A stretch of 64,000 bases of DNA from Callorhinchus milii. Taxonomy: Eukaryota. Under the pieces are notes generated by a model. That model was given only the letters and a program-made list of their open reading frames with translations. It was not told where the DNA came from and made no database searches. Below are positions 32,741 through 36,098 of the stretch, piece by piece (the first letter of the stretch is position 1; every line of letters begins with the position of its first letter). The stretch is taken from positions 33,172,001 through 33,236,000 of the forward strand of contig NW_024704742.1 in assembly GCF_018977255.1 (NCBI RefSeq), given 5' to 3'. Made by a program: the position numbers and the translations under genes.

Positions 32741-33783
32741 TGGGAACAGAGCAGGAAGCCAAGAATGAGAAGGAAAAAGAAAGGGGCAGGTTTTTAAATC
32801 TGGTTTTAAATATAAACCAACAATTGGGAAGCTTGAAAGGCCAAAACAATGGAGCTTTAAAATATAATCTAATGTTCAGTTAGTCCTGATCCATAATCTT
32901 ATGATAAAGGTATCTTTGGCACATTTGTTTGATACTGAAACAAAACAACATGCACAGTGCAGCTCTTCATTTAGTTATATTAGTCAGCAATGTGGGTAAC
33001 TGTTAGGTTCACTCAGTCTTTACTGAACTATTTAGCCTTTAATGCCCTGATGAAAGGACAACCTTGCAGAGCTGTTAATTGGGTGACTTTACTGGCAAGC
33101 TGGGTTTTCTTTTATGATTGTTATCCTGTGGGCATTGGTAACTATGTTCCAGTCCAAAATTAGCATCTCTCGGGGTCTGAGAAAGGTGGCTCGAGTTATT
33201 GCTATTTTTACCATAAGCACTGAATCTGTCATGAAAATATTGTAAAATGAGTCTCATATTTGCATTGTTTCTGCAGCATCTGGTGAAAGGTTCTATTTTT
33301 GAAGGAGAAACACAATTGAGTGTGTTGAATTGAAGTACTGTATTAAGACTTATAATTGTTGTCTGCATATTTAGCATTTTAAATGCTGGTTAAAACTTGC
33401 AATGCAGAGTAGTTTGAATGAAATGGGATTGTGGCATCTGAACAGAACAGAAAATGCAACTTATTAAAACCTTTTGACAGCAGTTTTGACATCATTAACT
33501 TCATTTATATTCATTGTTTCATTATTTCACTCTGGCATTTTTCTCCCTCCCAACATCTGCACCTTTCCAAGTACAGACTGCTCAGAGGAGTGTAAGACAG
33601 GAAGGTTATGTTTCAATCATTCATCATCCTCTTCCTCCTGCTCTACCATATCTTCTTGCTGGTCTCCATCCTTGCTCTGCCCCAGCAGTCGCTCCTGCTG
33701 TCACTGTGTCTTGAAGATCCTGGTCACCCTCTACCTTTTCATCTTTATTTGTTCATATGTTGTGTTTCTTTCCATCAATTCAG

Positions 33784-33885
33784 CGACCAAGTGCACAGAA
33801 AATGCAAACGTTAACCCAAATGCACATTCAGAGAATCAGTCGCATGAGTCAGATCCTTCACAGCCTGCACCTTCCTCTGTCCAGT
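33784..33885 (+). CDS. CAMK2D: Candidate extra linker cassette exon (A)TKCTENANVNPNAHSENQSHESDPSQPAPSSVQ(S)
   Basis: Pyrimidine tract + cag acceptor, consensus gtaagt donor, 102 nt, symmetric phase 1-1, no stop. Sits where beta/gamma CaMKII carry variable inserts. No transcript evidence. Confidence 0.6.
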
Positions 33886-36098
33886 GTAAGTCAAGAGCAC
33901 AACAGTCCCTGTGGTCCCATGGAGCAGAGGTCCCACCGTTTCTGAGCTCAGAGCCACCCAGGACATTAGGTACCCTGACCCCTGACTGAGAACCCACTAG
34001 CCCCCACACTCAGCGCAGGCTTCCTGCGATGCAACAAGACCTTACTCCTGCCCTCCCTCACAGGCTCCACAAAGGCTGCTCTGAAATAACAAATCACACA
34101 CCAGAACCATGGGAACGGGTGTCTCTCATCCGTTACTCGGGCTGCGCTGCTTCCATAGTCCAACTAGGCTTTCATAGATTTCATAGCCTCTGCACTTCCA
34201 GTGCGTCTCCCACCACCACCCAAAACGATCTTGTGGACCCAGTTTGAGAATGGCTGCCATAGAAGATTAATGTGGCTAGACTAGAAGATTAACTAGACCA
34301 TATATAGGACTGAAGACTTTTTACAAAGTGTTACTTTTACAGTAACTAAATAATGATGCCCAAAATGTCAATTTTTATGTCCTATGCTTTTTTGTCCACC
34401 AGTTATTATTGTGATGTGTATACTTTTGTATGTAAATAGTGCTACATGTACAATTTTTGTTGTGGTACAGATGTGTATTATAGTGTGAACCGTACACTTG
34501 TTTATTTCACTTTTAGGCCTGAGTGTTTCATTGCTAGTGACTGAAATATGCTCATGTGATTCAGATGTTTTTGTCACCCTGTTTTTTAAAGGGTGTAATG
34601 AAAACAGTATTATGTATGTGAAAGTCGCTATACAAATGTAATTTTGTTGTTGTACGTCTCTATTTTTGACACAAATATTTTTTGGCCTTAATAGTGACAA
34701 TGACTTGTGTAAAAAGCTCCCATCCTGTATCAGTTACCCATCATTTTTTTGAAAAAAGTTTACAAAGCAGTATGCTTCTCGCTATTGTATTAAATTATGC
34801 AAAGAATAGATGTTCCGTGTGAGTGCAGTCACTGCAGTTTGTAGCAATACTGCTGCACTCATTGCAAAACAATACTTCATCTAAAATCAAGCTGAAGAAA
34901 TATAATATTCTGCTGCTGATTTCAATATCCAGCATATCAAAATTAAGGTTCTTATCAGGATATTCCTAGGTAGTCATCTTAATTTTATTTTTGTCAAATT
35001 TTGCAGTTCGCAGTTGTGAATGATTTGGAAAGATTTCTTCAAAAATTCTTTATCTTACGTAATTGGGCATTAAGGTTGTGACCTAATAACTGGCATTAAA
35101 GATGTTTCTTCTTAATCTGATACAGCATGGTGGCTCTTGAGTACTTCACTGTGCTGCATTGTTCTCAGACAATGTTGTTAGGAATGTAATTCTGGTATCA
35201 GTGCCTAAATAATTACATTTTGTTTTCTATAGAAGAAATGTAGTACAGTAGCATTCAGAGTTATGTCTTCAAACTGATGTGTAGAGCAAACAAACAGACA
35301 GAAGGTCAGAGTTGAAATCAGTTTAGTATAAATAGCAAATTTATTCTAAAAAATGAAAGAATTGCTCATTTAGATTATTAGATAGTTGAGATACACAAGA
35401 ATTGCCTCCTATTGGTTAATGGCATAATTAAGGACTTCTGTTAATTCACAGTTTAAGCATGGTTAGCACAACTCAGAACTTAGACCTCTCTGGGAAGGAG
35501 GAAAGGATAAGGTTATTTATAGAATTAACTTTTAACTTGGTTAGTATTGATACAAATTTTTACAATTGTGGTGTTGGTCATCCCCCATTTAAGCCTGATA
35601 ATGTGGCCTTGCATCTTTATCTGGAAGACAAGATACAGTGTTGAAATACGGCACAAAACAAAGTCCACAAGCATTGAGGGAAATGTAAATGAACGTCTAT
35701 CCACTTGTTATGAAAGAATTAAGATGTCAAAATAGGCCCTGCTACAGTATAAGGTGTGGCATTTGTCTCCACATGGAGGGAGAGAAAGGAACTAAGTGAA
35801 GATGACAAGTGGCATTGGTACTTGTGCTTTGAAAATTGACAGCCGAATTTGCTCATTCTGATGCATGTTGTTGGTTATTCTCCAAACACAATTTACTGAC
35901 CCTTACTGGCGTATGTGCCTTGGTTTGGAAATTCTGATTGCACGTTTTGTGCTTGTTGTTCCTCGAATACCTTTTAGTCTTAATGTCTGCACTTGGAGCA
36001 TCAACTTTATTTGTTTTTAAAATAAGTGATTTTAAAATTTTTAAATTTTCAACAGTGGTAGCCTGAGAGAAATGGGAAATCTTTTTAGAGACTAGTAG

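Follow-up and report, generated by a model that had tools for sequence, protein, structure and literature searches.

The stretch of DNA analysed here, a 64-kb window of the Callorhinchus milii genome (contig NW_024704742.1, positions 33,172,001 to 33,236,000), carries on its + strand most of the camk2d gene for CaMKII delta, which was located by tblastn with the full-length protein records P0009 and P0001. The 5.6-kb intron between the exon ending in ...EDEDVK (30523-30571) and the exon beginning with RKQEIIK (36163-36239) includes an alternative exon with two acceptors 207 nucleotides (nt) apart and a single donor. The short form of 102 nt is already annotated in C. milii and is not new. The long form of 309 nt is not annotated in this species but is annotated in others, and it adds a Ser/Cys-rich stretch, a pair of cysteines and a hydrophobic segment that is a candidate membrane helix. 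An alternative exon with two acceptors, in which the long form is genuine conserved coding sequence, is probably the correct description of the region.

All coordinates are window positions on the + strand, and the features that bear on this description are as follows.

33484..33576 (+): pyrimidine-rich tract, 70% C+T, before the proximal acceptor ...gtacag/AC (sequence)

33577..33885 (+): long exon form, 309 nt, 103 codons, phase 1-1, from the proximal acceptor; stop-free, with the catshark record P0001 aligning at 33579-33896 (E 3e-40, tblastn)

33577..33695 (+): Ser/Cys-rich part of the long form, variable in length and predicted to be disordered, with near-invariant W-S-P and C-P-S (alignment, AlphaFold2)

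33696..33701 (+): invariant Cys-Cys, six residues ahead of the hydrophobic core; a basic residue stands directly before the core (12-species alignment)

33717..33776 (+): hydrophobic core ILVTLYLFIFICSYVVFLSI, candidate membrane helix (hydropathy, AlphaFold2, alignment)

33784..33885 (+): short exon form, 102 nt, phase 1-1, from the distal acceptor ...caattcag/CG, encoding the hydrophilic 34-residue insert ATKCTENANVNPNAHSENQSHESDPSQPAPSSVQS (sequence; C. milii records)

33886..33891 (+): donor GTAAGT, common to both forms (sequence)

33885..33989 (+): read-through of the donor, 34 further codons and TGA at 33987-33989 (sequence)

33577..33597 (+): proposed 15-nt microexon (33577-33591) and its gtaaga donor; letters present, use unsupported

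30523..30571 (+): constitutive linker exon ESTESTNTIIEDEDVK, ending in phase 1, with a gtacgt donor (tblastn of P0009 and P0001)

36163..36239 (+): first hub exon, (A/S)RKQEIIK, preceded by ...cttag (tblastn)

38387..38614 (+): last hub exon (tblastn)

Both forms have the properties of a linker cassette, namely the position in the EDEDxK/RKQEIIK slot, phase 1-1, lengths divisible by three, AG acceptors and the GTAAGT donor. The exon coordinates, phases and donors given in the original prediction, which had been made from the letters of the window, were all exact. It had also placed an AG-free pyrimidine tract before 33577; the tract is AG-free from about -94 to -8, but an extra AG lies at 33570-33571, position -7 of the proximal acceptor. 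The stretch is single-copy, with one match in the 991.5-Mb genome, and a single-sequence search of the C. milii genome revealed no second copy of the exon (best other E value 0.23).

The stop-to-stop frame around the exon comprises 173 codons, a length reached or exceeded by 10 of the 6926 frames in the window. As open frames of this length are not rare in the window, the evidence for the exon rests on the comparison with other species. An open frame with splice-like sites that arose as a chance feature of the intron, for which the unremarkable length of the frame would speak, is refuted by this comparison and can be regarded as virtually excluded: the short part is present in three C. milii protein records, the long part matches orthologous records with E values of 1e-17 to 3e-32, and matches to a profile reach E values down to 1e-43.

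The 34-residue insert of the short form is found at 100% identity in the C. milii records P0008 (UniRef), P0009 (XP_007895203.1) and P0114 (V9KAW6), which bears out the prediction of a phase 1-1 exon at 33784-33885. In P0008 and P0009 the insert stands between EDEDVK and RKQEIIK, and none of the upstream 207 nt is included. P0009 and the orthologous records bear the name CaMKII delta, and Pfam analysis of the catshark record P0001 identified the domains Pkinase (E 4e-77) and CaMKII_AD (E 6e-59), as required of a member of the delta family.

When the 102-residue long reading was used as the query, 9 matches were obtained among 38 candidate proteins, and seven of these have the long reading (Scyliorhinus canicula, Eretmochelys imbricata, Xenopus tropicalis and four more frogs). 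A search with the turtle insert gave 14 matches among 50 candidates. Twelve have the long reading, with Pluvialis, Calidris, Larus, Melopsittacus, three messy homology-based bird models, Pogona and platypus added to the species above, and the remaining two are Chelonia mydas records with the short part only. All 23 matches of a further search were either CaMKII-delta records (16) or open reading frames (ORFs) of the same sequence (7). The long form is therefore included in protein records of at least 12 species besides C. milii, as expected of a cassette exon. No therian and no named teleost record was among the matches of the long-exon queries, a statement about hit lists that is not proof of absence.

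Counting the cluster members listed (at most 15 per cluster), the long form is joined to the hub in 12 of 14 members from Scyliorhinus, the other two being fragments, and in all members from Leptodactylus (14/14), Larus/Pluvialis (14/14), Pogona (9/9) and Hyperolius (5/5). The short form is joined to the hub in all 18 members from Chelonia/Dermochelys. Short and long records thus both exist, even within the turtles, and both acceptors are used in annotation. The homology-based bird models P0012, P0016 and P0018 include intron sequence on both sides of the exon. A look-up of sequencing runs returned eight entries with the stretch or part of it, none of which is recorded as RNA.

Conservation within the long form was assessed at the protein level in an alignment of 12 species (A1). 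The alignment begins at the first residue after the exon junction, and this exact start fits a common proximal acceptor. Its indels are all in frame and located in the Ser-run, while C40, C41 and C58-I66 are invariant; the two cysteines are retained in 12/12 sequences. The four parts of the exon differ in conservation, as given here by the range of identities to C. milii and the number of invariant columns.

Ser/Cys-rich start: identity 7-17/27; invariant columns 2/27

W..CC..LK segment: identity 9-16/19; invariant columns 4/19

Hydrophobic core: identity 15-18/20; invariant columns 12/20

Annotated short-exon part: identity 11-20/34; invariant columns 1/34

The best conserved segment is the hydrophobic core, which belongs to the part that is unannotated in C. 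milii. The stop-free 309-nt exon with its hydrophobic stretch, put forward in the original prediction, is retained in frame in records from cartilaginous fish, amphibians, sauropsids and a monotreme. The records from across the vertebrates likewise support its proposal of an ancestral delta insert at the EDEDVK/RKQEIIK junction, and we take the long form to be real coding sequence, which would be ancestral to jawed vertebrates.

A search of 1.84 billion cluster representatives with a profile returned 14 matches, all of which are ORFs of this exon type. Eight of them (P0031-P0038, E values 1.7e-7 to 4.3e-4) are divergent. They are laid out in the same way, with a Ser-run followed by a W.SPS-like motif, a pair of cysteines, a basic residue, a hydrophobic stretch 20-21 residues long and a hydrophilic tail. 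The Cys pair is reduced to one Cys in two of the eight, and in most the tail is followed by Q-C-K, the reading given by an unspliced donor ..CAGT/GTAAG... When compared with the C. milii genome, P0031 and P0032 found this exon as the best match (E 6.4e-7 and 4e-5, respectively), and P0034 found it second, with an E value of 0.0115 that is practically equal to the 0.0106 of the top match. Pfam analysis of the 102-residue reading produced no match below E 0.15, the ESM Atlas gave no usable match, and a metagenome scan for orthologous DNA yielded 354 pattern matches, none of which was confirmed.

The properties of the core were compared in 16 sequences, including seven of the divergent ORFs (P0035, nearly a duplicate of P0034, was omitted), and the evidence for a helix consists of Kyte-Doolittle hydropathy, calculated with the standard scale, and AlphaFold2 secondary structure. 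The core is 20-21 residues long in 16/16 sequences, its mean Kyte-Doolittle value ranges from 1.85 to 2.89, and K or R immediately precedes it in 15/16. There is one proline in the cores, in one of the 16 sequences, whereas most flanks have one to six. The 19-residue Kyte-Doolittle maximum is 2.49, which, together with a predicted helix with a predicted local distance difference test (pLDDT) score above 90, is as expected of a membrane-spanning hydrophobic segment. The AlphaFold2 model of A1 has one helix, spanning residues 37-74, for which the block pLDDT values are 92, 96 and 83 and the values in the core 92-96. Everything outside the helix was predicted to be disordered, residues 1-28 having a pLDDT below 50. 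Among random 20-codon strings of local base composition, 0.8% of draws were open, free of P, D, E, K and R and reached a Kyte-Doolittle value of at least 2.0.

It had been noted in the original prediction that the hydrophobicity could simply be that of a translated polypyrimidine tract. Taken further, this would mean that only the 102-nt exon is real and that 33577-33783 is conserved intron, with a polypyrimidine tract, a branch point and sites for splicing regulators, that is open by chance and is added to the exon by pipelines extending to an upstream AG. The long-specific part is indeed 64-70% pyrimidine, its strongest invariance lies in the 33-36 nt directly before the distal acceptor, and the C. 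milii and Chelonia/Dermochelys records have the short form only. However, the frame is open in 16/16 sequences despite the indels of the Ser-run, all of them in frame, and conservation extends about 200 nt upstream of the distal acceptor to include the invariant Cys-Cys and a near-invariant Trp, which have purine-containing codons. Codons for V, I, A, Y and C abound in the core, where a pure pyrimidine tract would encode F, S, L and P; proline is almost missing from the core yet common in both flanks. In addition, the exon starts at the same residue in records of several databases and many species. The seven divergent ORFs retain the layout, the length and the hydrophobicity of the core with 5-11/20 core identities to the reference, which argues for selection on the protein and not on a pyrimidine tract alone. 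Taken together, a conserved intron upstream of a real 102-nt exon is considered unlikely.

Part of the pyrimidine-tract explanation stands. The distal acceptor has its pyrimidine tract and branch region in the 3' half of the hydrophobic core. The last 33-36 nt of the long-specific part, which encode the invariant CSYVVFLSINS, probably serve the short exon as well, as its 3' splice-site region. This segment would be invariant because of its double duty as helix codons and splice-site region, and the double constraint would make the helix far more invariant than membrane-type helices usually are. As judged by the sequence comparisons, the rest of the long-specific part behaves like protein under selection.

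The two acceptors would lead to two kinds of linker. Use of the distal acceptor at 33784 would place 34 hydrophilic residues between ...EDEDVK and RKQEIIK, and use of the proximal acceptor at 33577 would add 69 more residues upstream of these, comprising the disordered Ser/Cys-rich stretch, Cys-Cys, the basic residue and a 20-residue hydrophobic helix. The helix would be a built-in membrane anchor of the kinase, and the choice of acceptor would switch the enzyme between a soluble and a membrane-bound form. The flank is basic before the helix and acidic after it, and the Cys pair is on the N-side; from these features the kinase side is predicted to face the cytosol. The Cys-Cys pair may be palmitoylated, and the anchored product may or may not retain the hub. 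Single-pass and tail-anchored proteins with juxtamembrane cysteines have a uniformly hydrophobic helix of 20 residues, flanked by a basic residue and paired cysteines toward the cytosol and by acidic residues on the far side. The arrangement in CaMKII delta would be non-classical, with the helix about 440 residues into a cytosolic kinase and followed by 170 residues when the long form is joined to the hub or by 70 residues when the donor is read through.

Several points weigh against a functional long form with an anchoring helix. All three C. milii records use the distal acceptor only, and the use of 33577 in C. milii is deduced from orthologues. The long-form records of the other species are predicted isoforms, whose underlying support is not visible. 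The hydrophobic part is 70% pyrimidine and coincides with the site that the short exon needs for its polypyrimidine tract, so that part of its conservation requires no protein function. Finally, the topology is awkward for a full-length subunit, since a spanning helix would put the hub across the membrane. The hub would stay on the kinase side if the helix were embedded in the membrane but did not span it. With these points taken into account, the orthologous sequences still make it quite probable that the proximal acceptor at 33577 is used in C. milii, and the chance that the helix inserts into a membrane is put at slightly better than even.

The 15-nt microexon at 33577-33591 (DCSEE), which the original prediction had offered as another use of the proximal acceptor, did not find support. 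The letters are present, and the residues encoded at its GT are Cys-Lys here but C-N, C-S, G-S, G-D, R-D or S-D elsewhere. A microexon donor is thus not conserved at the protein level, which leaves the microexon unsupported but not disproved.

When the shared donor is read through, the product continues with ..Q-C-K.., a motif that unspliced ORFs from other taxa have at the same position. As a sub-case of the alternative exon with a genuine long form, the long form might be mainly an alternative last exon, in which the donor is left unspliced, the stop follows 34 codons on (33987-33989) and the product is a monomeric, hub-less kinase with a C-terminal anchor, while the short form is used in mRNAs that include the hub. 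Three records, P0002 (hawksbill turtle), P0006 (Engystomops) and P0013 (budgerigar), lack the hub and stop within the exon or shortly beyond it, and a hub-less product would avoid the topology in which the hub lies across the membrane. Against this, the long form is joined to the hub in 54 of the 56 cluster members among those listed. The tail after the helix would have 70 residues in the read-through product here (38 in P0002 and 51 in P0006), which is above the length typical of tail-anchored proteins. The intron after the exon (33886-36162) is without AATAAA and has ATTAAA only at 34789 and 35095, about 0.9-1.2 kb downstream. In mouse Camk2d, an alternative last exon designated 17.5 has been described in the same intron and assigned to the olfactory bulb (PMC12060085, available part), and a hub-less mouse Camk2d cDNA appears in a table of PMC1431701 in the part of that paper available; these speak for a last exon, but therian records are missing from the matches of the long-exon queries. 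On balance, use of the long form mainly as a last exon is judged to be fairly unlikely.

According to the available part of PMC12060085, mouse exon 17.5 is a last exon of 2732 bp with its own stop and polyadenylation signals. It shares with the C. milii exon the same intron and the optional use, and its hub-less products resemble the truncated turtle, frog and budgerigar records. No hydrophobic segment is mentioned for exon 17.5 in that part of the paper.

A second comparison is with alphaKAP, a known CaMKII product whose hydrophobic anchor is N-terminal. In the available parts of PMC5882894 and PMC9913510, alphaKAP is described as a CaMKII alpha gene product which is made from an alternative promoter, has a hydrophobic anchor but no kinase domain, and brings CaMKII activity to the sarcoplasmic reticulum membrane. 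AlphaKAP and the delta long form are both CaMKII gene products with a hydrophobic anchor segment, which in delta is predicted. In contrast to alphaKAP, with its own promoter, start and N-terminal anchor, the delta helix is an internal cassette between kinase and hub and has no Met here. By analogy, the resemblance of the delta helix to alphaKAP is a functional one.

An internal start of the alphaKAP kind was rejected as a conserved feature of the delta exon: the long exon has no Met codon in C. milii or Xenopus tropicalis, and Met is present in birds and turtles. In bird and turtle-like sequences this Met lies in ..GDMERL.., and several ORFs among P0021-P0029 begin at it or stay open well upstream of the acceptor.

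The exon also occupies a slot that is used by other CaMKII genes. In the available part of bioRxiv 10.1101/721589, the slot between exon 18 (..EDEDxK) and exon 22 (RKQEIIK) of the human genes is filled by exons 19-21 (proline-rich) for beta and by exon 19 for gamma, and none is listed there for delta. In a review of delta splice variants (PMC7991079, available part), which uses its own exon numbers, all variation is placed between exons 13-17 and 20-22. The beta and gamma exons 19-21 and the delta exon described here are optional cassettes of the same slot and the same phase. The short form resembles the beta and gamma cassettes in size, in being hydrophilic and in being rich in Ser, Pro and Gln. 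The hydrophobic extension is in the delta long form, and none is described for the beta and gamma exons in the available parts of these sources. Homology to the beta and gamma exons was not found: tblastn of 16 inserts against the complete equivalent introns of four paralogues in the same genome gave chance-level matches only. In the paralogue on contig C13 (about 19068838-19069217) the EDEDTK-RKQEIIK intron is only about 380 nt, and there is thus no room in it for an exon of this kind; the introns of the other three are 2.7-12.5 kb.

Outside the linker, tblastn of P0009 and P0001 against the window showed the kinase, regulatory, linker and hub exons of camk2d to be ordered along 2342-38614. 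Kinase exon 6 is present in two tandem versions (2344-2416 and 3320-3392), both of which are flanked by an AG acceptor and a GT donor; the first is taken by P0008 and the second by P0009. Mutually exclusive exons 6A and 6B are known in mouse and human Camk2d (PMC12060085 and bioRxiv 10.1101/721589, available parts). The tandem pair here matches the mammalian 6A/6B, and the pair is thus older than the split between cartilaginous and bony vertebrates. The catshark record P0001 has KKRKSSSSVQMM between the exons that correspond to those flanking 20556-28449. A motif scan of the + frames of the window with a simple pattern found no KRKSS..-type nuclear-localisation exon, and in the C. milii window such an exon may be diverged, absent or overlooked by the simple pattern.

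Downstream of camk2d, the longest open frame of the window (42881-43681, + strand, 267 codons) has a weak RVT_1 match (E 8.6e-4) below the Pfam cut-off and is probably a decayed retroelement. Four further long open frames of the window have no Pfam match, and the window includes one N, at 17639.

A hydrophobic or transmembrane linker exon of CaMKII delta was not found described in the open-access papers and bioRxiv preprints searched, in which the linker inserts are presented as flexible spacers, nuclear signals or actin- or SH3-type motifs. Records of shark, frog, lizard, bird, turtle and monotreme include the helix exon, the described mammalian isoforms do not, and a mammal-centred literature could have overlooked it. 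The long form is missing from the annotation of C. milii, and the exon is of interest for work on Xenopus, birds and other model animals that have it.

A broader view is offered tentatively, as its chance falls somewhat short of even. Most jawed vertebrates might make an integral-membrane CaMKII by means of a palmitoylatable Cys-Cys and a transmembrane helix, with two acceptors 207 nt apart switching between the forms and the helix codons doubling as a splice signal. In therians the coding capacity would then have disappeared, leaving at most a hub-less last exon in that intron.

The accepted routes of CaMKII to membranes are partner proteins and alphaKAP. A deeply conserved linker exon with a membrane-type helix would, if true, be a different route of kinase targeting, and the exon would clearly exemplify a sequence under two constraints, as protein and as splice signal.

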